Part shown: one piece after another, positions 52,250 through 64,000 of the stretch
Layout: each line of letters opens with the position of its first letter
Position numbering within the stretch: position 1 is the first letter of the stretch
NCBI GenBank assembly: GCA_022566265.1
Contig: JADFJG010000002.1
Location: 9,173-73,172 of the forward strand
Direction of reading: 5' to 3'
Length of the DNA stretch: 64,000 nt
Source: Pseudomonadota bacterium
Lineage (GTDB): Bacteria > Pseudomonadota > Alphaproteobacteria > SMXQ01
Program-made: the position numbers and the translations under genes
The notes under the pieces: generated by a model
The model's database searches: none
Seen by the model: only the letters and a program-made list of their open reading frames with translations
Told to the model about the DNA's origin: nothing

Positions 52250-52875
52250 GGTTTGATCGGAATCCGTAATGAGTCGTCTCCCGTGCTGGCTCCTGTTGGC
52301 CTTACCGACCATCGGTTCCCCATCCGCCCCGAGCCCGCCTGTGCGGCCGGAGCCGCTTCGGCGTGGCGAAGGCCCGCCGGAACCAACATCGACGGGACAA
52401 ACAAGGGAGGATCACCGGTCCGGGCAGGAGTGAGGTGACCGCCCGTCAACGCTTCGAAACGGCGATCCCCGCCATTTATACACCAAGGTTGGTTAAGAGC
52501 TTGCTAACCCGGATATTTCATGAAGGGAACGGAATTTGCGGCGAGCAATGTTTGTCCAAGGCGGTGTGCGAAGCCGAAAGTCATAGCATCGCTATGGCTT
52601 GAGGTTTGGTGCGCCGATTTGGACAAACAGGGCCGTCGCAAAACCGTTCAGCGGACGAGGGTACAAAACGCCCCTTTTTCGAATAACGAGCCAAGCCATT
52701 GAAGTAAAACACTAACACACCCCGAGGGAGCGCCTTCATGAAATATTCGGGCCAACACATTCGGGCTCTGTTTCACCCTTCGCGCGGCCGGCCCGGGCAT
52801 CCGTCGTCGGTCACTCGCGATCATTGGCCGGCGGCGCTCCAGAACCAGCGTCAACCCGCGTTACGGGAAAACGCC

Positions 52876-53583
52876 CTAAACCAGGACGCCGTCCTTGAGG
52901 GCGACGGTGCGGTCCATGCGCTGGGCAAGCTCGGGATTGTGGGTGGCGATGAGGGCGGCGCTCGAGGTCGCGCGCAGCACCTTGACGAGTTCCTCGAACA
53001 CCTGATCGGCGGTCTCCCGGTCGAGGTTGCCGGTCGGCTCGTCGGCCAACAGCACCGCCGGGGCGTTGGCGAGCGCCCGGGAGATGGCGACGCGCTGCTG
53101 CTCGCCGCCCGAAAGCCTTGCCGGACGGTGGGAGGCGCGTTCCGACAGCCCGACCATGGCCAGCAGTTCGCTCGCCCTATCGGTGGCCTCGGCGCGGCCG
53201 ACGCCGGCGATCAATTGGGGCAGCATGACGTTCTCGAGCGCCGAGAACTCCGCCAACAGGTGATGGAACTGGTAGACGAAACCGAGGCGGGAGCGGCGAA
53301 GCCCGGTCCTCTTGTCATCGTTGAGCCCTCCGCAGGCGAGGCCGTCGAGCCACACCTCGCCGCCGTCGGGATGCTCCAGGAGCCCGGCGATGTGCAGCAG
53401 CGTCGACTTGCCGGCGCCCGACGGCCCCATCAGCGCGACGATCTCTCCGGCCTCGACGGCCAGCGAGGCGCCCCTCAGCACCCTGAGCTCGACCGGGCCC
53501 TGGACGAAGGTGCGCTCGACTTTATCGAGCCTGAGCGGCGCCGTCTCATTCATCGCGCCCTCATTCATAGCGCCCTCATTCAT
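52876..53583 (-). CDS. lolD: lipoprotein-releasing system ATP-binding protein
   Basis: ABC ATPase: Walker [10 protein letters not shown], signature [15 protein letters not shown], Walker [12 protein letters not shown]. The N-terminus carries a triplicated MNEGA from a 15-bp tandem repeat, so the true start is one of 53583, 53568, 53553 or 53538. Confidence 0.85.
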
Positions 53584-54793
53584 AGCGCAGGGCCTCGACC
53601 GGATCGAGCGAGGCCGCCCGCAAGGAAGGATAGATCGTCGCCAGGAAGGAGAGCGCCAGCGCCGTCAGCACCACCACCGCCACGTCCGCCCCATCGAGCC
53701 TCGAGGTCAGACGGGCGAAGAATTCGGCCTCGCCCGAATAGCCGCCGCCCAAACCGAGCGCCGCGATCGCCCCGCCGAGATCCTCGACGCGCGCCGCCAC
53801 CGACAGGCCGACAAGGGTGCCGATGGCGGTGCCGAGGACGCCGACGGAAGCGCCGCTAAAGATGAAGATGCGAAGGATCATCCCCCGGGTCGCGCCCATG
53901 GTCCGCAGGATGGCGATGTCGCGGCCCTTGTCCTTCACCAGCATCACCATGCTGGCGATGATGTTGAGCGCCGCGACGAGGACGATCAGGGAGACGATGA
54001 TGAAGGTGGCGATGCGCTCGACCTCGAGCGCCACCAGCAAGGTCGCGTTCACCTGACGCCAATCGCGGACCTTGAAACCGCCGCCGGCGAGGCGGGCGAT
54101 TCCGGCGGTCCAGGCCTCGACCCGCGCCGGATCGGCGACCTCGACCTCGAGCGCGCTGACCCGGCCGGGCAGGCCGAACATGCGCTGGGCCGCGGCCAGC
54201 GGCATCAACAGCAAAGATTCACCCCTCGGTCCGGCGGCGGCTTCGAGGAGGGCGCCGATGCGAAAACGACCGCGCCGCGGCGCCAGTTGGATGCCTTCCT
54301 TGCCGCCGGCCTTGCCGCCGGCGGTGGGCGTCACCAGGGTCAAGGCATCGCCCCGGACGACGCCGAGCTTGGCCGCCAGCCGTGGCGAGATGACGATCTC
54401 GGGCGCGCCTTCGCCGCCGCCGCCGTCCGGCACTTGGGCGCCGGTAAGCCGGGCGAGCTCGTCGTCGGGCAAGCCCCTGGCGATGAGGACCAAAAGCCTG
54501 CCGCGCGAGGACACCATGACCTGGCGCTCGACCACCGGACGGACGCGGACGACGCCCTCGATGGCGCCGATCTCGCCGGCCAGGGATTCGAAACCGGCGA
54601 TGCCCGGCGGCCCGGCGGCCACCGTCAGATGGCCGCGAAAGCCGATCATCCGATCGACCAGTTGATCGCGGAAGCCGTTGAGCACCGCCATCACCACGAG
54701 CAGCGTGGCGACGCCAAGGGCGATGCCGGCGAGGCCGAGCCCGGCGATGAGGGACACCTTGCCCTCCTGGCGCCGGGGGCGCAGATAGCGCAT
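53576..54793 (-). CDS. lolE: lipoprotein-releasing system permease (LolC/LolE family, FtsX-like)
   Basis: [20 protein letters not shown]-terminus, 4 TM segments and a MacB-type periplasmic domain. Start may be a non-ATG codon further upstream, abutting the preceding permease gene. Confidence 0.75.
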
Positions 54794-54843
54794 CGCGACG
54801 ACGCGCTCGAAGGTGCTAAGCACCGCCGCCCCTCCCCGGTGAT

Positions 54844-56091
54844 TCACCCATAGCGCAAGGTCTCGACCGGATCGAGCGTTGCCGCCCGCCACGACGGATA
54901 GAGCGTCGCCAGCAGCGAGATGCCAAGCGCCATCGCCGCCACCCAGGCCACGTCCGTCCCCTGGATGCGCGCCGGCAACTCGGCCAGGAAGTAGAGCTCG
55001 GGCGAAAACAGATCGACGCCCGCGACTTTCTCGATCCAACGGCGGATGCCCTCGATATTGGACGCCAGCAATATGGCGAGGCCGACGCCGGCAGCGGTGC
55101 CGGTGACGCCGATGGCGAGGCTGTTCAACAGGAAGATCCGCATGATCATGCCCCTGCTCGCGCCCATGGTGCGCAGAATCCCGATCTCGGATCGCTTGTC
55201 CTTGACCAGCATGTTCAGCCCCGAGACGATGTTGAAGGCGGCGACCAGGATCATCAGCCCCAACACCAGCATCAGCATGTTGCGCTGCACGCGCACCTCG
55301 TCGAGGAACGGCGTATAGGCCTGGCGCCAGTCGAAGATCCGGCGGTCCGGGCCGACGACCAAGGCGATCTCGGCGCGCGCCGAAGCGAGTTCCCGGATAT
55401 CGCCAAGCGCGACCTCGATGCCGGTGACGGCGCCCTTGAAACGAAAGAAGATCTGCGCCGCCTCGAGCGGCATGTAGATGAAGCTGTCGTCGTAATCGAA
55501 CATGCCGATCTCGAAAGTGGCGATGACGCGATAGCGCTTCTGGCGGGCGAAGGCGCCGAACGCCGTTCGCGTCGCCTGGGGCGACACCAGGGTCACCCTA
55601 TCGCCGACGCCGACGCCGAGCTTCTCGGCCAGGCGGGTACCCAGGATGACGGCGTTCTTTCCCTTGAAGCGGTCGAGCGTGCCGGCGCGGATATTGCCGG
55701 CGACGATGCTACGGTCCTTGAGATCGGCGGGGCTGAGCCCGCGCACCACCGCGCCGGCGGCGATATCCCCGCTGATGGCCATGACTCGGCCCTGGACCAT
55801 GGGCGTCGCCCGGACCACCTGGCCGAGGCCGCCGATGCGTTTGGCCAGCGCGTCGAAGTCCTCGATCCGCCCGCGCTGGTCGTAGACCCTGAGGTGGCCG
55901 TTGACTTCGAGCACACGGGAAAGAAGCTCGTGGCGGAAACCGTCCATCACCGCCATGACGACGATCAGCGCGCCGACGCCAAGCGCGATCCCCAGCACCG
56001 AAAGGGCGGCGATCACCGAAATGAAGCCTTCCTGGCGGCGCGCCCGCAGATAGCGCCAGGCGACGGTCCGCTCAAACGGGGAAAACATCAT
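54844..56091 (-). CDS. lolC: lipoprotein-releasing system permease (LolC/LolE family) paralogue
   Basis: 415 aa. MMFSPFERTVAWRYLRARRQEGFISVIAAL N-terminus. FtsX-like. In tandem with the second permease and lolD. Confidence 0.8.
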   Translation of the reverse strand: MMFSPFERTVAWRYLRARRQEGFISVIAALSVLGIALGVGALIVVMAVMDGFRHELLSRVLEVNGHLRVYDQRGRIEDFDALAKRIGGLGQVVRATPMVQGRVMAISGDIAAGAVVRGLSPADLKDRSIVAGNIRAGTLDRFKGKNAVILGTRLAEKLGVGVGDRVTLVSPQATRTAFGAFARQKRYRVIATFEIGMFDYDDSFIYMPLEAAQIFFRFKGAVTGIEVALGDIRELASARAEIALVVGPDRRIFDWRQAYTPFLDEVRVQRNMLMLVLGLMILVAAFNIVSGLNMLVKDKRSEIGILRTMGASRGMIMRIFLLNSLAIGVTGTAAGVGLAILLASNIEGIRRWIEKVAGVDLFSPELYFLAELPARIQGTDVAWVAAMALGISLLATLYPSWRAATLDPVETLRYG

Positions 56092-56100
56092 CGAACGACG

Positions 56101-57405
56101 TCACGCAGCCGCCGGCGCCGGAACCAGGCGGGCAAGCGCCGAGTCCGCCGAGTGCTCTTCCACCTCGCCGCTCTCGCGCCGCTTCAACTCGACGACGCCC
56201 TGCTTCACCCCCCGGGGCCCGACGATCAGTTGGTAGGGCAGGCCGATCAGGTCCATGGTGGCGAACTTGACGCCGGGCCGCTCGTCGCGGTCATCGTAAA
56301 GCACCTCGACGCCGGCCTGGCGCAACTTGGCGTAAAGATCGGAACAGACCCCGTCGCAGTCCTTGTCGCCGGCCCGCAGGTTGATCAGCCCGACCTTGAA
56401 CGGCGCCACCGATTCCGGCCAGATCATGCCGGCATCGTCGTGGCTGGCCTCGATGATGGCGCCGGCGAGGCGCGAGATGCCGATGCCGTAGGAGCCCATT
56501 TCGACGGTGATGGACTCACCATTGGGGCCGGTGACGACGGCGCCCATGGGCGCGGAATATTTGGTCCCGAAATAGAATATGTGGCCGACCTCGATGCCCC
56601 TCGCGGCGCGGAGCCTGTCGTCGGGCAGCGGACAGGCGGCCGGATCGTGCTCGTCATCGGTCGCCGCGTACAGGGACTTCAGGGTCTCGAGGTCCGGCTG
56701 TTCCCCCTTGGCGCGCAGCTCGTCGAACTTCGCGTCGTAGAAGATCTCGCTTTCGCCGGTCTCGGCCAGTATCTGGAACTCGTGGCTCAACTCGCCGCCG
56801 ATGGCGCCGGGATCGGCGCGCACCGGAATCGCCGTCAGACCCAAGCGGGAGAAGGTCCTGAGATAGGTCGCGAACATGTTGTCGTAGGACCGCTTGGCGC
56901 CGTCGAAATCGAGGTCGAAGGAGTAGTTGTCCTTCATCAGGAACTCGCGGCCCCGCATGACGCCGAAGCGCGGGCGGATCTCGTCGCGGAACTTCCACTG
57001 GATCTGGTAGAGGTTCTTCGGCAGGTCCCGGTAACTCTTGATCAGGTGCCGGAAGATGTCGGTGATCAGTTCCTCGTTGGTCGGGCCGTAGAGCATCTTG
57101 CGCTGATGGCGGTCGGTGATGCGCAGCATCTCCTTGCCGTAGCCGTCATAGCGGCCCGACTCCTCCCACAGCTCCGCCGGCTGGATCGTCGGCATGAGGA
57201 TTTCCTGGCACCCGGCCGCGTCCTGCTCTTCGCGGACGATGCGGGTGATGTTCTGCAGCACCCTGAGGCCAAGCGGCAGCCAGGAATAGATGCCGGCGCT
57301 CGATTGGCGGATCATGCCGGCGCGCAGCATCAACCGGTGGGAGACGATCTGCGCTTCGGCGGGCGTCTCCTTCAGGGTCGGCAGGAAATAGGCCGATAGA
57401 TGCAT
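56101..57405 (-). CDS. proS: proline--tRNA ligase (short alphaproteobacterial type)
   Basis: 434 aa class-II aaRS with a ProRS anticodon-binding C-terminal domain. [11 protein letters not shown] start. Confidence 0.9.
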
Positions 57406-57568
57406 GGCGTCCTTGAGCGCGAAACGGTGCGGGCGGCGCCGATCGAGGATCGGCCGGGTCCTGAGCGCGGTCAGACTTTATGCAAAGGCGCAATCAATAG
57501 CAATGGCGGGCGAAACGAGCGGGGAAAACCGGGTGAAAGAGCGGACCGAGGGGTGTCCGCTACGGCCT

Positions 57569-57994
57569 CTAACCTGCCGGGCCCTGTTTCTGGCAGGCGG
57601 CGGCGAGGCCGTGGCTCTCCTCGCTGGTCAGGGGCTGGCCGTTGAAATAGGCCCGGCCGTCCTTCTTGACGATGACGGTGCCGATAGTGGCCTCGGGCCG
57701 GTACAAATCCGGGGTCGGCGGGATGTTGAAGCGCTTGTCGATATCGACGGTGATGGCGATCACGATCTCCTCTGGCAGCTTGATTTCGGGCGCATCGCCG
57801 AGATCGGCGGGAACGACCGGGCGGCCATCGACGTCGACACCGGACTCATAGGCGACCCCCGGTTCGGCGACATGACGGACGAGGGCGGCGCAGTCGGCCT
57901 TGGTGATGATGACGGTCGCGGCGCCGGTGGGAACGGTGAAAACCGCAAGGATGGCGAGAGTCAGCGTCAAGGCATAAAAAAATTTTGGAAACAT
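57569..57994 (-). CDS. secreted hypothetical protein
   Basis: 141 aa. Signal peptide MFPKFFYALTLTLAILAVFTVPTGAA. No family recognised. Confidence 0.45.
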   Translation of the reverse strand: MFPKFFYALTLTLAILAVFTVPTGAATVIITKADCAALVRHVAEPGVAYESGVDVDGRPVVPADLGDAPEIKLPEEIVIAITVDIDKRFNIPPTPDLYRPEATIGTVIVKKDGRAYFNGQPLTSEESHGLAAACQKQGPAG

Positions 57995-58259
57995 GGATCG
58001 AATCTAATTCACCAACTTTTAACAAAGCGATAACCGCCCGGGCCTACCCTATCCCCATAAATCAGATTAACAAATCGTACCACCATATTGAATAATAAAG
58101 ATATATAACCCGGCATCTAGGTCCACGCTGACACCGTCCGGCACCCGGCGGAACCCCATTCCGACCCTCCCTCCCGGTTTTCGAAGGCGATGAAAAAAAA
58201 TCGAAAATATGCACAGGGCTCGTGACTCCGGCGCGGGAACCACGTACAATAATCGCCAA

Positions 58260-58418
58260 GTGATAAAAAAAGGCCGCACTGGCGGTTACCAATACGGCCC
58301 AAGTTCAGGGAGGAAACGCCTAGTTAGGCGAGTGCAGGAGCAAAAGCCCTGCACCGGCTCATATAGAGCCCAATTATAAAATGGCAACCCCCAATGTGGG
58401 AATTGCCATTTTTTTTTG
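58260..58418 (+). ncRNA. candidate small RNA (predicted promoter plus internal hairpin plus intrinsic terminator) in the AT-rich intergenic region
   Basis: Putative sigma70 promoter GTGACT-n17-TACAAT at ~58224-58252. A downstream GTGCAGG...CCTGCAC hairpin at ~58333-58357. A strong terminator at 58380-58418. No ORF of convincing size or codon bias. Confidence 0.3.
58380..58418 (+). terminator. Rho-independent terminator (8-bp stem AATGGCAA/TTGCCATT with internal CCC/GGG extension, then T9)
   Basis: aAATGGCAAcccccaatgtgggaaTTGCCATTTTTTTTTg. A-rich 5' flank, so it could also function on the minus strand. Confidence 0.75.
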
Positions 58419-58741
58419 CAAGTCTTCTTGCCACGGCGCAGCCCCGCCAAGGATCGACTTTCAGGCGCCGAATGGTTTTTTCAACGCGGGATTTTTGCGC
58501 CGCGGTCTTTCGCGGCACGAACTTTCCCCGCTCGCGCCGTCGTCGGGCAAAGCGCCGCCATTTCCATTTCGTTGGCTCCCCTTCGATATAAATCAAGTTC
58601 CGGCGGCGAAGGGCTTGCTTTGGATGTTGGCCGTTGGTGGCCGCCGCGAGTCGCGTTGGCATGGTGTGTTGGAACGGTGTATTGTCGGGGCAACCGGTAC
58701 AGGGTTGGAACGACCCGTTCATTTTGGCGAGGAGAGTTTAC

Positions 58742-59644
58742 ATGACACCTGGATTTCGAGCTTTGATCGTTAGCGTGCCGCTGATGCTTTTTGTTGCCGG
58801 CTGTGGCTGGAGCAAGATCGATACGATGAAGGACATGACGCCCACGGGCAGCAAGTTCTACCAGGCGCTCTACAGCGAATACGTCAAGGTGGGCGACCGC
58901 GAGGCGAAGGAGGACGACTGGAACAACGCCGTCAAATATGCCGATCGCGCCATCAAATCGGCGTCGGGAGGGCCGGTGTATCCGGAGGCGATCGAGGCCC
59001 GTGATCTTCCCAGGAACACGGTGGGCGATCTCCTTGCCGGCCGCAATCGTCTGACCGCCGCCTTGATCCGCAGTGGCCGGAAGAAAGCGCCCAAGGACGC
59101 GGCGCACGCCCAGGTCATGTTCGATTGCTGGATGGAGGAGCAGGAAGAGAACCATCAGCCGAAGGATATCGCCAAGTGCCGCGCCGCCTTCGAGAAGTCC
59201 CTCGCCAAGGTCGAGAAAGCCCTGAAGAGAAAGAAGAAGCCCAAGGCGAAGGCCAAGGCCAAGGCCATGCCGGCGCCGGAACCCGCGCCCAAGCCGGAGA
59301 AGGCGAGCTTCATCGTCTATTTCGACTTCGACAGCGCCAAAATCACCGCCAAGGGCCGGGCGGTCATCGGTCAGGCCCTGAGTTGGAGCCAGGCCAGGGT
59401 CCCGGGGGAGATCTCCGTGATCGGACACACCGACCGCGCCGGCGCCAACGCCTATAATTCGAAGCTGTCCGAAAGACGGGCGGAGGAGGTTGCCAAAGCC
59501 TTGATCGACGGCGGTCTCGCGCTCGGATTCCTCTTCAAGACCGGGGCGTCCGGCGAGGAGGCGCCGGCGGTGGCAACGGCGGACGGCAAGCGCGAAGCAC
59601 GCAATCGGCGCGTCAAGATCGACCTCGTGCAATTGGCGAGATGA
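58742..59644 (+). CDS. OmpA-family lipoprotein (peptidoglycan-associated)
   Basis: Lipobox LMLFVAGC. C-terminal OmpA-like domain (FDFDSAKIT...IGHTDRAGANAYNSKLSERRAEEVAKAL...NRRVKI). Lys-rich linker KRKKKPKAKAKAKA. Confidence 0.85.
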   Translation: MTPGFRALIVSVPLMLFVAGCGWSKIDTMKDMTPTGSKFYQALYSEYVKVGDREAKEDDWNNAVKYADRAIKSASGGPVYPEAIEARDLPRNTVGDLLAGRNRLTAALIRSGRKKAPKDAAHAQVMFDCWMEEQEENHQPKDIAKCRAAFEKSLAKVEKALKRKKKPKAKAKAKAMPAPEPAPKPEKASFIVYFDFDSAKITAKGRAVIGQALSWSQARVPGEISVIGHTDRAGANAYNSKLSERRAEEVAKALIDGGLALGFLFKTGASGEEAPAVATADGKREARNRRVKIDLVQLAR

Positions 59645-59940
59645 CGATGCACCGCGGGGCCGACCGGTCCGGCGCCAGGCTGGCCTTGTTGCTGGCGCCG
59701 GGGGTCCGTCCATTGGGCCTAAATTGCACCAGGGGCGGCCGCTAGCCGAAAGGGTTGACGTGCATCTTCGGCGGGACTAGGCGCCAGATCGAGAGGCCAA
59801 CTAGGCCCGTGGCCGAACCGCCCCAACGCGAAATCGAAGCCACCGGCCCTCGTGTCGGCGGCGGGTAACGATAAAAAAAATCGGGCGGTGCGCGCAAGCG
59901 GGCGTGCGCCTTCCCGGCGTCTCAGAGAGAGGACTTATCG

Positions 59941-62900
59941 ATGAAAAAGCTGCTCGTCGGCCTTGGCGCCGTCATCGTGTTGCTGGTCACGGCGGTCATC
60001 GCCCTGCCGGTTCTCATCCCTTCGGACACCATCAAGGAGCAAATCTCCGCCCAGGTCCGCGACGCCACCGGGCGCGAGTTGCTGATCGATGGCGAGGTAA
60101 GTTTCTCCCTGGTGCCCAATATCGAGTTCAGCGCCAGCGATATCAGCCTGTCGAACGCGGCGGGCATGACCGATGCCAAAATGCTCTCGCTCGGCGGTAT
60201 CACCGTCAAGATAGGGCTGTTGCCGCTGCTCGGCCGAGAGGTGGTGATCGACACCCTCGTCATTCGCGATCCCGTCCTACATTTGGAGGTCGACAAAGAG
60301 GGACGGCCGAATTGGGCCTTCAAGCCGGCGAAGGCGGGACCATCGGGCGCTGGGGAAGAACCGGCCCAAAAGACGGCGGCATTGCCGTTCTCCGATCTTC
60401 GTCTAGGCGATGTCCGGATCGAGAATGGCCTGGTCTCATTCAACAACGCCTCGACCGGCCAAACCTTGCAGGCCAAGGGGATCGATCTGAAAGTGGCGTT
60501 GGCCGATCTCGGCAGCCCGCTTTCCCTCACCGGCCGCCTGACCCTCAATGACGAGCCCGTGACCCTCGAGCTTTCGGTGAAGACACCGAGGGACCTGCTT
60601 AGCGGCAAGAGCGCGGCCATTCAGACGGCGCTCGTCACCAAGCACCTGACCATCGGCTTCGACGCCAAGATACAGCAGCAGCCGGTGCCGGGCCTCGACG
60701 GCGCCTTCAAGCTCGACATCGCCTCGGTCGGCAGGCTGGCGGCGTGGCTCGGCCAGCCGCTGGACAAGGCACTGCCCGATCCCGGGCCGCTCAAGGTGCG
60801 CGCGACCTTCAAAGGCGACGGCGCCAAGGTGGCGCTCAAGCAAGCGACGATCGAGGGCAAGGGGCTCAAGGCCCAGGCCACCGGCAGCTTCGACGGGACC
60901 GGCAAGATCGCCAAGGTGGTGCTTAACATCGAGACCGGCGTTCTCGACATCGACCGCTATCTGCCGCCGGCGCGGGATAAGAGAGGTCAGAAGGAGATCA
61001 GGGCCGAACCGCCCAAGGGGCAGAAAAAGGCGGCCGACATGCTGGCGGCCTTATCCGATGAGCCTCTCGATTTGAGCGCGCTCAGCCAGACCGACGCCGA
61101 TGTGCGGATCGCCATCGGCGGCATCAAGGTGGCGGGCTTCGAGATCGGACGCGTGGCGTTCACCACCAAACTGACGAAGGGCGTTTTGGCCGCCGAGTTG
61201 AGTGAGCTCCGTCTTTACGGCGGTAACGTCAAGGGCAAGGTGAAGCTCGACGCCTCCGGCGACGCCCTCGCGGTGGAGGCGGCGTTGACCATCGATGGCG
61301 TGAAGCCCGCCAAGCTGGCCCGCACGGCGACCGGCGGCAGGGTGGTGGTGAGCGGTACGGCGTCGGGTTCGGTGAACGCCACCGCGCGCGGCGCCAGCCC
61401 GCGGGCACTGGCGCAAAGTCTCCGCGGCAAGCTCACTTTCGCGCTGGGCGGCGTCGAAATCAAGGACGCGCCGGTGGGCGCCATCACCGATATCAAGGTG
61501 GCCATCGACCTGCCGGGCCTCGAAAGTCCGCCGAGCCTGAAAGGCAGCGTCATCTACAACAAGCAACGGGTCGATCTGACCGCGTCGCTGGATTCGCTCA
61601 AGAAGGTGATGTCGGGCGGGCCGTTCGCGGCCAAGCTATCGGTGGCGACGAAGCACCTTAAGGCCGGTTACGACGGCAAGGTACTTCAACAGCCGGTGCC
61701 CGGTCTCGACGGCGCCTTCAAGCTCGACATCGCCTCGGTCGGTAAGCTGGCGGCATGGCTCGGCCAGCCGCTGGACAAGGCACGGCCCGATCCCGGACCG
61801 CTCAAGGTGCGGGCAACTTTTACCGGTGACGGCGCCAAGGTGGCGCTCAAGCAAGCGACGATCGAGGGCAAGGGGCTCAAGGCCCAGGCCACCGGCAGCT
61901 TCGACGGCTCCGGCAAGATCGCCAAGGTGGTGCTTAACATCGAGACCGGCGTTCTCGACATCGACCGCTATCTGCCGCCGGCGCGGGATCAGAAGGAGAT
62001 AACCGCCGAACCGCCCAAGGGGCGGCAACCGGCGCCCGACATGCTGGCGGCCTTGTCCGATGAGCCTCTCGATTTGAGCGCGCTCAGCCAGACCGACGCC
62101 GATGTGCGGATCGCCATCGGCGGCATCAAGGTGGCGGGCTTCGAGATCGGACGCGTGGCGTTCACCACCAAATTGGCGAAGGGCGTTTTGGCCGCCGAGT
62201 TGAGTGAGCTCGGTCTTTACGGCGGTAACGTCAAGGGCAAGGTGAAGCTCGACGGCTCCGGCGATGCCCTCGCGGTGGAGGTGGCGTTGACCATCGATGG
62301 CGTGAAGCCCGCCAAGCTGGCCCGCACGGCAACCGGCGGCAAGGTGGTGGTGAGCGGTACGGCGTCGGGTTCGGTGAACGCCACCGCGCGCGGCGCCAGC
62401 CCGCGGGCACTGGCGCAAAGTCTCCGCGGCAAACTCGCCTTCGCGCTCGGCGGCGTCGAGATCAAGGACGCACCGGTGGGCGCGATCTCCGATATCAAGG
62501 TGGCCATCGACCTGCCGGGCCTCGAAAGTCCGCCGAGCCTGAAGGGTAGCGTCATCTACAACAAAGAGCGGGTCGATCTGACCGCGTCGCTGGATTCGCT
62601 CAAGAAGGTGATGTCGGGCGGACCCTTCGCGGCCAAGCTATCGGTGGCGACGAAACATCTGAAGGCCGGTTACGACGGCAAGGTACAGCAGCAGCCGGTG
62701 CCCGGTCTCGACGGCGCCTTCAAGCTCGACGTCGCCTCGGTCGGCAAGCTGGCGGCATGGCTCGGCCAGCCGCTGGACAAGGCACGGCCCGATCCCGGGC
62801 CGCTCAAGCTGCGGGCAACCTTCACCAGCGACGGCGCCAAGGTGGCGCTCAAGCAAGCGACGATCGAGGGTAAGGGACTCAAGCTCAAGGCCACCGGCAG

Positions 62901-64000
62901 CTTCGATGGCTCCAATCCCATTCCGCGCTTCAAATCCAATATCGAGATCATGGAAGCGAACCTGAATGCCTATTTGCCGCCGCTCGCAGCCAAGAAAAAA
63001 GCGCCGGCCAAATCCAAAACCGGGAAACAACGGCCCACCGGCTGGAGCCGGGAACCGATCGACTTTTCACCCCTGTCCAAAGCCAATGGCGACATCGACG
63101 TTAAGATCGGCACCATTCGTTATAAGGATCTGCTCATCCAAAACGGCCGCATCAGGGTTTCGATCGCCAACGGTGTTCTCACCACGTCGTTGGAGCAACT
63201 GAAGCTGGCGCAGGGGACGATCTCGGCAACAGCGAAGATCGACGCCTCGAAACCGGCCGCGAGGATCGAATATCAGGCGTCGATCACCGGTGTCGAGTCG
63301 AGGAAGTTATTGAAGACCTTCGCCGACAACGACCGGCTGAGCGGCAGGGTCGATTTCCAGACCAGGGGCAGGGCGCGGGGCCGCAACCAGAGGGAGCTGG
63401 TTGAATCCCTCAACGGGGATGGCAGGTTCAAGTTCATCGACGGCGCCATCCACGGAATCAATCTGGCGGCAACGCTTCGCAAGGCCAAGACCCTGGGGAT
63501 CGGCACCTCCGGGGGTGAAGCGCAGAAGACCGATTTCGCCGAGTTGAGCGGCAGCTTCACGATCAAGAACGGGCTTTTGGAGAACCGCGATTTCAAGATG
63601 CTGGCGCCGTTGATTCGTCTCAGCGGCGCCGGTGTGGTGCCGCTGCCGCCGCAATGGGTCGATTATCTGGTGACGGCGAAGCTTGTCGCCTCCATCAAGG
63701 GCCAGGGTGGAGCTGACGCCCTTGCCGGGTTGCCGATCCCGATCAAAATCGAAGGCCCCTGGAGCAACGTCGGTTATGGCGTCGATTGGAAGAGGGTGTT
63801 CTCCCAGGCGATGTTGGATCCCGAACGCCTCAGGAATATGCCCGCGGACTTACGCGAATCGGCGAAGGGGTTCGGCGTCGATCTGCCGGCTTTCAAGATC
63901 CCCGGCACCGACTTTCTGAAGGGGCTGTTCCAGCCGAAGCAAACACAGCCGGTCGAACCAACGAAGGAACAGGAAGCCCCGCCAGCGCCCAATCCAGCGC
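59941..64000 (+). CDS. AsmA-family outer-membrane biogenesis protein (partial; runs off the 3' end of the window)
   Basis: ATG at 59941 with an N-terminal TM anchor (MKKLLVGLGAVIVLLVTAVIALPVLIPSD), then an AsmA/TamB-like beta-rich sequence. No stop codon in frame before the window end, which is why it is absent from the complete-ORF track. Contains ~334-aa near-identical internal repeats. Confidence 0.8.
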   Translation, partial: MKKLLVGLGAVIVLLVTAVIALPVLIPSDTIKEQISAQVRDATGRELLIDGEVSFSLVPNIEFSASDISLSNAAGMTDAKMLSLGGITVKIGLLPLLGREVVIDTLVIRDPVLHLEVDKEGRPNWAFKPAKAGPSGAGEEPAQKTAALPFSDLRLGDVRIENGLVSFNNASTGQTLQAKGIDLKVALADLGSPLSLTGRLTLNDEPVTLELSVKTPRDLLSGKSAAIQTALVTKHLTIGFDAKIQQQPVPGLDGAFKLDIASVGRLAAWLGQPLDKALPDPGPLKVRATFKGDGAKVALKQATIEGKGLKAQATGSFDGTGKIAKVVLNIETGVLDIDRYLPPARDKRGQKEIRAEPPKGQKKAADMLAALSDEPLDLSALSQTDADVRIAIGGIKVAGFEIGRVAFTTKLTKGVLAAELSELRLYGGNVKGKVKLDASGDALAVEAALTIDGVKPAKLARTATGGRVVVSGTASGSVNATARGASPRALAQSLRGKLTFALGGVEIKDAPVGAITDIKVAIDLPGLESPPSLKGSVIYNKQRVDLTASLDSLKKVMSGGPFAAKLSVATKHLKAGYDGKVLQQPVPGLDGAFKLDIASVGKLAAWLGQPLDKARPDPGPLKVRATFTGDGAKVALKQATIEGKGLKAQATGSFDGSGKIAKVVLNIETGVLDIDRYLPPARDQKEITAEPPKGRQPAPDMLAALSDEPLDLSALSQTDADVRIAIGGIKVAGFEIGRVAFTTKLAKGVLAAELSELGLYGGNVKGKVKLDGSGDALAVEVALTIDGVKPAKLARTATGGKVVVSGTASGSVNATARGASPRALAQSLRGKLAFALGGVEIKDAPVGAISDIKVAIDLPGLESPPSLKGSVIYNKERVDLTASLDSLKKVMSGGPFAAKLSVATKHLKAGYDGKVQQQPVPGLDGAFKLDVASVGKLAAWLGQPLDKARPDPGPLKLRATFTSDGAKVALKQATIEGKGLKLKATGSFDGSNPIPRFKSNIEIMEANLNAYLPPLAAKKKAPAKSKTGKQRPTGWSREPIDFSPLSKANGDIDVKIGTIRYKDLLIQNGRIRVSIANGVLTTSLEQLKLAQGTISATAKIDASKPAARIEYQASITGVESRKLLKTFADNDRLSGRVDFQTRGRARGRNQRELVESLNGDGRFKFIDGAIHGINLAATLRKAKTLGIGTSGGEAQKTDFAELSGSFTIKNGLLENRDFKMLAPLIRLSGAGVVPLPPQWVDYLVTAKLVASIKGQGGADALAGLPIPIKIEGPWSNVGYGVDWKRVFSQAMLDPERLRNMPADLRESAKGFGVDLPAFKIPGTDFLKGLFQPKQTQPVEPTKEQEAPPAPNPA
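60655..62905 (+). repeat. about 1002-bp near-identical tandem repeat (about 2.25 copies) inside the AsmA-family gene
   Basis: Copy 1 is ~60655-61665 and carries a 9-bp indel. Copy 2 is 61666-62667. Partial copy 3 is 62668-~62905. The anchors ggttacgacggcaaggta at 61666 and 62668 give an exact 1002-bp period. Paired spurious antisense ORFs also recur at 1002-bp spacing: 60987/61989 and 61215/62217. Confidence 0.9.

Follow-up and report, generated by a model that had tools for sequence, protein, structure and literature searches.

The stretch of DNA analysed here (the window) comprises 64,000 nucleotides (nt) of contig JADFJG010000002.1, from an assembly placed in the Alphaproteobacteria, and its last part is occupied by a gene of the AsmA family whose coding sequence contains a long tandem repeat. 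The gene lies on the + strand (59941–64000), in a frame that a scan for open reading frames (ORFs) finds open from 59875 to 63999, with the first methionine at 59941. Translation from this ATG reproduces, from residue 1, the protein P0001, which comes from a metagenome-assembled genome of Proteobacteria and carries the annotation “AsmA family protein”; the window encodes residues 1–1353 of its 1370 amino acids (aa), and the final 17 codons lie past the window end. The repeated unit is a protein module, and its number apparently differs between this gene and near-identical relatives, a difference that probably goes back to recombination between misaligned copies of a shorter repeat.

The assignment of the protein to the AsmA family is based on its match to the Pfam AsmA profile (PF05170), which reaches 315.9 bits (cut-off 29.8; E 9e-94) over four stretches, the best-matching of which is formed by residues 969–1218. 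A weaker match is found to the YhdP profile (PF13116; 50.9 bits vs 46). The threshold of the NCBIfam equivalog model of E. coli AsmA (NF008091) is not reached (147.5 bits, cut-off 412), and by these scores the protein is a member of the AsmA family and not an AsmA equivalog. The TamB/DUF490 C-terminal domain is not among its Pfam matches, and an identity with TamB was rejected because this domain is missing and because the gene is accompanied by an OmpA-family lipoprotein gene rather than by tamA. In size, the protein of the window, with its two full units, falls in the class of YhdP and TamB, while the form with one unit (1026 aa) stands between YdbH and YhdP.

AlphaFold2 was applied to the one-module relative P0003 and to residues 1–1200 of the window protein, two proteins that are identical over their first 233 residues; the predicted local distance difference test score (pLDDT) is 78.6 for the former model and 81.6 for the latter. 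Both models show an N-terminal helix followed by an almost wholly beta body. The helix (residues 2–25 in the P0003 model and 2–20 in that of the window protein) coincides with a hydrophobic segment, KKLLVGLGAVIVLLVTAVIALPVL, encoded at 59944–60015 (+), and is predicted to be the inner-membrane anchor typical of AsmA-like proteins. The predicted arrangement is thus that of the family, namely a single N-terminal anchor and a large, beta-rich part that would lie in the periplasm.

The repeat extends from 60640 to approximately 62920 and consists of 2.28 head-to-tail copies, every one of them in frame. The direct repeats begin at 60637, 61648 and 62650, with spacings of 1011 and 1002 nt. At these offsets the sliding identity is 0.8–1.0 over approximately 60660–61910 and falls to background outside, and a comparison of the gene with itself by BLAST returns, for offset 1011, an alignment of 1275 nt with 92.9% identity and, for offset 2013, one of 243 nt with 90.9%, so that the repeat is far beyond what chance would produce. 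Tandem Repeats Finder, run with a longest period of 500, missed it because the period lies above that limit. The first copy of the module (60640–61650, +) has 1011 nt, or 337 codons, and is made up of an “a” block (60640–60909) and a “b” part (60910–61650). The second copy, the extra unit (61651–62652, +), has 1002 nt, or 334 codons, with a hybrid “a” block at 61651–61920 and a “b” part at 61921–62652. The third copy is partial (62653–62922, +; approximately 270 nt) and corresponds to a third “a” block, with which the terminal module starts.

Copies 1 and 2 differ by 60 substitutions in 1002 aligned nt (94.0% identity), distributed unevenly, with 89.6% identity over the first 270 nt and 95.6% over the other 732 nt, and the longest exact match between the two copies is 117 nt. 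They also differ by one indel of 9 nt, AAGAGAGGT (AAG AGA GGT, encoding K R G), which is present in copy 1 (60979–60987, +) and absent from copy 2. The initial annotation had described an in-frame tandem duplication inside an AsmA-family gene, with copies separated only by scattered single-nucleotide differences and one 9-bp indel, and with duplicated antisense ORFs, and all of this is borne out; the ORFs in question, of 112 aa each, lie on the minus strand at 61215–61553 and 62217–62555, 1002 nt apart. Its estimate of more than 95% identity was too high for copies 1 and 2, and the exact period of 1002 that it gave is valid from copy 2 to copy 3, the spacing from copy 1 to copy 2 being 1011. 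In a codon-based comparison of the two copies, the divergence at synonymous sites (dS) is 0.10–0.14 (0.139) and that at nonsynonymous sites (dN) is 0.037, with a dN/dS ratio of 0.27, which indicates that both copies have been retained under purifying selection. The dS between the window and the nearest strain, L001, is 0.015, and the copy pair is therefore several-fold older than the split between the strains. The pair would accordingly be young and constrained in both of its units, and not brand new, so that the “very recent” expansion of the annotation does not hold.

The anatomy of the unit is informative with regard to how it may have been multiplied. Each unit has 334 residues in all, composed of the conserved “a” block of 90 residues (270 nt) and the “b” part of 244 residues, and is preceded by the N-terminal region and followed by a terminal unit, which itself opens with another “a” block. 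What follows the third “a” block in the window is the conserved C-terminal AsmA region, whose protein sequence is only 25–30% (approximately 27%) identical to “b”. The order in the window is N–a1–b1–a2–b2–a3–C-terminus, and that of the one-module alleles is a1–b1–aT, with aT denoting the “a” block at the start of the terminal part. In the one-module alleles L001, L004 and L091, the 270-nt “a” blocks on both sides of “b” are direct repeats of approximately 88% identity, whose longest exact runs are 49, 45 and 54 nt, respectively. Given that these alleles already hold the “a” block twice, the 2.28 copies of the window do not amount to a 2.28-fold expansion, and the 2.25 copies of the earlier description, read as an expansion, reduce to exactly one added unit of 1002 nt.

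The middle “a” block of the window is a hybrid. Its variants are of the terminal-block type, as found in L091, at positions 1–177, and of the first-block type from position 232; positions 178–257 reproduce a1 exactly, in a match of 80 nt, before the sequence passes into “b”. The recombination junction falls within the 54 nt (61828–61881, +) that are exactly common to the first and the terminal “a” blocks. The 5′ part of a2 would derive from the downstream repeat and its 3′ part from the upstream repeat, which is the junction that unequal exchange leaves behind, and the copies are arranged head to tail, with pre-existing direct repeats flanking the unit in the alleles that have a single copy, as such an exchange also demands. 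The a2 block of the relative L082 has a mosaic pattern that differs from that of the window, which suggests that its history was separate.

The closest relatives of the window place this arrangement beside alleles with a single module. The sequence of L001 (GCA_022560855.1) aligns gap-free with window positions 52871–61911 (9041 nt, 99.38% identity), beyond which it passes into the C-terminal region, and it has exactly one unit fewer than the window. L091, an independent assembly of the European Nucleotide Archive (ENA), likewise has a single unit, with an identity of 99.71% to the window over 6967 nt. Its single module is of the type of copy 1 (“a” 100% and “b” 99.87% identical), and its terminal “a” block agrees exactly with the a2 block of the window at positions 10–231. 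After position 231 of a2, approximately 1002 nt of the window (the a1-type tail, b2 and a3) are 4–6% diverged from L091, and then there are 0 mismatches in 950 nt (62918–63869). The “b” part of copy 2 differs by 4.4% from that of copy 1 and by 3.8% from that of L001, while b1 differs from L001 by 1.3%. The terminal “a” block is of the a2 type with a tail of its own in L091 and of the a3 type in L001, and the 3′ end of “b” in L001 (codons 234–235) carries the states of b2. The passage from the “a” block to the C-terminal region (62884–62917, a3 positions 232–265) is a strikingly variable spot of 34 nt, at which L091 differs from the window in 7 positions. Two modules and one module are therefore found in sequences whose flanks are 99.4–99.7% identical, all of them metagenome assemblies, and the length of the bridge protein apparently varies by whole modules within one species, if the assembly is correct.

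Alleles with two units are also found in three further assemblies, those of the relatives L002, L082 and L083, which are 86–92% identical. A tree built from the “b” parts places units of the same lineage together, and the divergence between the two units of one protein is 3.8% in L082, 4.9% in L002, 1.3% in L003 and, over the first 269 nt, 7.4% in L083. The second unit of L082 differs from the single unit of L004 by 0.3%.

The module number was also followed through the family as a whole, over the 120 best listed homologues. One full unit is present in 39 of these proteins, two units in 79, three in one and four in one, and forms of approximately 680 aa without any full unit are found in Magnetospirillum and related isolates, so that the number of modules among relatives is 0, 1, 2, 3 or at least 4. 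Two-unit forms occur on contigs of megabase (Mb) scale (L016, L030, L031 and L033) and in the isolate Constrictibacter. The identity between the units of one protein descends in a smooth continuum (98, 93, 92, 82, 80, 77, 73 … 33%). In a neighbour-joining tree of 204 units, 34 nodes have units of the same protein in both daughter branches and were taken as duplications, and in 12 proteins the units are each other's sisters. By these comparisons the repeat architecture is old and widespread, and only the copy pair of the window is recent; repeats shared with orthologues and anciently diverged were what the initial annotation had set against a recent duplication, and the module is indeed repeated and diverged in orthologues, down to 33%, with the pair in the window itself young. 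Duplication, or homogenisation, seems to have recurred many times, and many of the duplications look independent.

Concerted evolution as a general property of the “a” blocks was tested and rejected, since over the family their median identity is 53% within proteins vs 55% between proteins, and in only 7 of 80 cases does the terminal “a” block of the same protein give the best match; homogenisation is limited to a few lineages. The proteins P0017 (L089) and P0058 (L090) were taken at one point as another near-identical pair with one module of difference, and were dropped as evidence because they are mosaic: their module numbers differ, their C-terminal regions are 98% identical and their N-terminal parts only about 72%, a pattern that points to recombination between diverged alleles within the gene in another clade. 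Several close homologues (L005, L009, L035, L039 and L071) belong to bins that bear the names Binatia, Nitrospinia or Solirubrobacterales, although both the gene and its surroundings have an alphaproteobacterial appearance, and the labels are probably due to mis-binning or to mislabelled metagenome bins.

The predicted structure gives an idea of what one module may contribute to the protein. In the AlphaFold2 model of the window protein, residues 234–570 and 571–904 contain 17 strands each, together with some short helices and a single loop predicted to be disordered, in agreement with the beta-rich module of about 334 aa that the initial annotation had read from the sequence. The loop (residues 345–364, pLDDT below 50) holds the 9-nt indel and three amino-acid changes. 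Foldseek searches of solved structures return LPD-3/BLTP1 as the best match (9cap, E 4.8e-10), followed by TamB (9xdc_B, E 6e-4), with low template modelling (TM) scores, as expected for long flexible rods. The models are consistent with the elongated beta-groove fold (beta-taco, or repeating beta-groove) of the AsmA-like superfamily, and suggest that the protein forms a long groove of beta sheet such as is found in bridge-like lipid-transport proteins, with a putative role in carrying phospholipids. Each copy of the module is predicted to form 17 beta strands of one continuous groove, and the extra unit would make the periplasmic part of the protein longer, extending the rod by an estimated 6–8 nm, a value derived from the strand count and from the residues per length in known homologues.

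Taken together, these data favour a real modular gain, in which misaligned homologous recombination probably added one in-frame unit to the gene of an AsmA-family bridge. The starting point would be an allele with one module, whose aT and a1 blocks, with their identity of approximately 88% and exact runs of 45–54 nt, can misalign as direct repeats. Homologous recombination between the misaligned blocks would add one unit of 1002 nt in frame and leave the hybrid a2 behind, and the reverse exchange would delete one unit. The second unit probably came from a slightly diverged allele and not from the sister copy, and both units would then have been kept under purifying selection.

Several observations weigh against this proposal. 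When codon changes are polarised with seven outgroup units, 19 fall on the branch of b2 and 6 on that of b1, and the extra unit does not behave as a clock-like sister; it looks like an allele diverged by 4–6% inserted in a backbone that is at least 99.5% identical. Of the three assemblies that make up this lineage (identity of at least 99.3%), two, namely L001 and L091, are without the unit. L082, when compared with the one-module L004, is 95.5% identical on the left side and 98.6% on the right, and thus also resembles a junction of two haplotypes. A simple history of ancestral duplication does not fit the sequences either, given that the tail of the terminal block of L091, with its 7 differences in 34 positions from a3, is not what a plain deletion from a window-like ancestor would leave. 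In sum, the window has the appearance of two alleles in tandem, the second of them diverged, and three readings are possible: an older ancestor with two units that suffered separate deletions, which fits L001 and not the L091 tail; a true unequal exchange involving two alleles, such as might follow the import of DNA; or an assembler that passed twice through a graph of two strains, which is unlikely. Two simpler histories were discarded. A recent duplication in situ, after the split of the strains, is at odds with an extra unit that is 4.4% from its sibling when the strains differ by only 0.3–0.6%, and a two-module ancestor with clean deletions is compatible with L001 and not with the terminal-block tail of L091.

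The possibility of an assembly artefact has to be considered with care, since the window and the close relatives compared with it all come from metagenome assembly. If two one-module strains were present that differ in a patch of about 1 kb, 4–6% diverged, an assembler might run twice around the loop formed by the shared “a” block and take the branch of one strain on each lap, and the resulting tandem duplication would exist in no cell. An L091-like allele with a diverged tandem patch of 1002 nt fits this scheme: a1 and b1 are 100% and 99.87% identical to L091, a2 follows it at positions 10–231, and the diverged unit is succeeded by 950 nt with 0 mismatches. The asymmetry of the branches (19 vs 6 codon changes) and the unequal identity of L082 to L004 on its two sides point in the same direction, and other contigs break within the repeat, among them L083 and L084, from another metagenome, which end there, as would be expected of the assembly hot-spot that had been suspected. 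On the other hand, the hybrid a2 requires k-mers that cross the 54-nt block (between positions 177 and 232), which, from the way in which assemblers work, one-module genomes should not supply at k of at least 55. No one-module allele with the sequence of b2 is found in the protein cluster of P0003 at 90% identity, which has two members only, two modules occur in four independent assemblies of close relatives, and the continuum of identities between modules includes pairs too diverged to be strain artefacts, as well as Mb-scale contigs. A mis-assembly is therefore regarded as unlikely. The opposite error, in which all strains have two modules and the one-module contigs L001, L091 and L004 are collapsed assemblies, so that copy number is not polymorphic at all, is highly improbable: no assembly error is commoner than the collapse of near-identical repeats, and L001 carries a few states of the second unit, but the longest match of 117 nt is shorter than the k of 141 implied by the MEGAHIT-style contig name of L091, with which the copies should have been resolved, and the L091 module is of the copy-1 type (99.9–100%), unmixed, with a terminal-block tail that represents an allele of its own.

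A different kind of explanation accepts the two modules as real and reverses the direction of change, so that an ancient two-module state, ancestral to the entire clade, was homogenised from time to time by gene conversion, which alone would make the copies look young, and the one-module alleles are recurrent deletions. The clustering of copies by genome in the module tree (window, L002, L082 and L003) and the broadly similar divergence of the copies in three lineages (3.8–4.9%) would follow from it. The b2 states at codons 234–235 of L001, together with its terminal “a” block of the third-block type, are the remnant expected of a deletion between b1 and b2, and in the clade of the window the “a” blocks of one protein are 80–99% identical, compared with 62–72% to the P0009 orthologue. 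Against it, the “a” blocks are not homogenised over the family, as described above, the divergence of the copies spreads from 1.3 to 7.4% even in close relatives, the terminal-block tail of L091 is not derived from the third block of the window, and the window and L091 differ in module number although they are the closest pair. This makes gene conversion a rather improbable account of the copy pair, and the gain of one unit by misaligned recombination is the reading retained here.

Directly upstream of the AsmA gene, and outside the repeat, lies the gene of an OmpA-family lipoprotein (58742–59644, +), with the lipobox LFVAGC, a linker rich in lysine, alanine and proline, and a C-terminal PF00691 domain, which is also found in the identical gene of L001. 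Of the 88 loci that were fetched, 21, among them loci of the distant Magnetospirillum, have a homologue of this lipoprotein gene next to the AsmA gene, on one side or the other, and by analogy with TamA for TamB, or YnbE for YdbH, the lipoprotein could be the outer-membrane partner of the bridge. The other neighbours in related loci are Tag, DUF1467 and RNase J. The linker contains the sequence KAKAKA, encoded by a 12-nt tandem repeat, GAAGGCCAAGGC, of 2.7 copies (59236–59267, +). Between proS and the OmpA-family gene, in an intergenic region of low G+C content (approximately 0.50–0.55 vs 0.65 elsewhere), there is an Rfam match to the alphaproteobacterial small RNA mmgR (RF00519; 58257–58336, − strand; 49.1 bits vs a gathering score of 41). 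Further upstream, the region 53312–57405 is syntenic with L001 and L091 and encodes an ABC ATPase, two paralogous permeases of the MacB/FtsX type and prolyl-tRNA synthetase; the permease genes are about 68% identical in nucleotides, and the arrangement of the region is lolCDE-like and ordinary.

AsmA-like proteins such as AsmA, YhdP, TamB and YdbH of E. coli have been proposed to form bridges that carry phospholipids across the periplasm from the inner to the outer membrane (PMC8593681, PMC10345924). The paralogues vary in length, and it is thought that length decides whether the outer membrane can be reached only with the help of a partner (PMC10345924). The window protein resembles them in its Pfam AsmA match, its predicted anchor helix, its long all-beta body and its Foldseek matches to TamB and BLTP1. 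In the known cases, however, the difference in length is between paralogues and the repeats are old and unrecognisable, whereas here it is between alleles of one orthologue and involves whole units of 334 residues that are still 92% identical.

A similar comparison can be made with the eukaryotic bridge-like proteins VPS13C and VPS13D, which were lengthened by internal duplications of approximately 500 residues (Levine 2022, PMC7613979); for proteins of the VPS13 type it has been suggested that repeat number and the width of the bridged gap may be related (PMC7613979). As in these proteins, a block of several groove repeats has been duplicated in tandem in a bridge-like lipid-transfer protein, giving a longer rod, which for the window is a prediction. 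The duplications of VPS13C and VPS13D are ancient and fixed between paralogues, while that of the window is recent (94% nucleotide identity) and of a recurrent kind, differs between sequences with 99.4–99.7% flank identity, and has its recombination substrate still visible. The third point of reference is given by the periscope proteins, bacterial surface proteins in which stalk length varies with how many highly identical tandem repeats are present (Whelan et al. 2021, PMC8201768). They are rod-like proteins of the envelope that vary between strains by near-identical, in-frame repeats through recombination, and the AsmA-family protein would resemble them in this, if the assemblies are right, with recombination as the probable mechanism. 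Periscope proteins are exposed stalks of adhesins, made of many short domains, with free space outside the cell; the window protein is periplasmic and presumably connects two membranes whose spacing is fixed, with a unit of 334 residues and 17 strands that is present from 0 to at least 4 times. No account of intragenic duplication or copy-number variation in AsmA-family genes was found in the searchable literature, and what appears to be new is the combination of features, that is, a periplasmic AsmA-family bridge that varies by whole units of 334 residues, apparently within one species, and recurrently in the family, with the substrate of recombination visible.

Bridge-like lipid-transfer proteins are thought to span a fixed gap, and whether their length has to match it is a question that concerns bacteria and VPS13-type proteins alike. 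If the assembly is right, the locus provides natural alleles that are one unit of 17 strands apart in an otherwise identical genome, and these alleles, together with the family series of 0 to at least 4 units, would be ready-made length variants with which to approach the idea of gap matching. The locus also illustrates how long groove proteins grow by internal duplication, with the substrate and the junction still legible. If the duplication is an artefact, the gene is a trap for the short-read assembly and annotation of metagenomes. A more speculative proposal, put forward very tentatively, is that the 334-residue unit is a natural module of length, and that recombination between “a” blocks adds and removes units of 17 strands, with one vs two in members of the same species. 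Were this true, co-occurring strains would carry bridges that differ by several nanometres, which would mean either that AsmA-like bridges need not match the distance between the membranes, or that the spacing of the envelope varies between strains, or that length tunes the choice of the partner that completes the bridge, for example the adjacent OmpA-family lipoprotein. The protein would then be a periplasmic counterpart of the variable-length periscope proteins of the cell surface.

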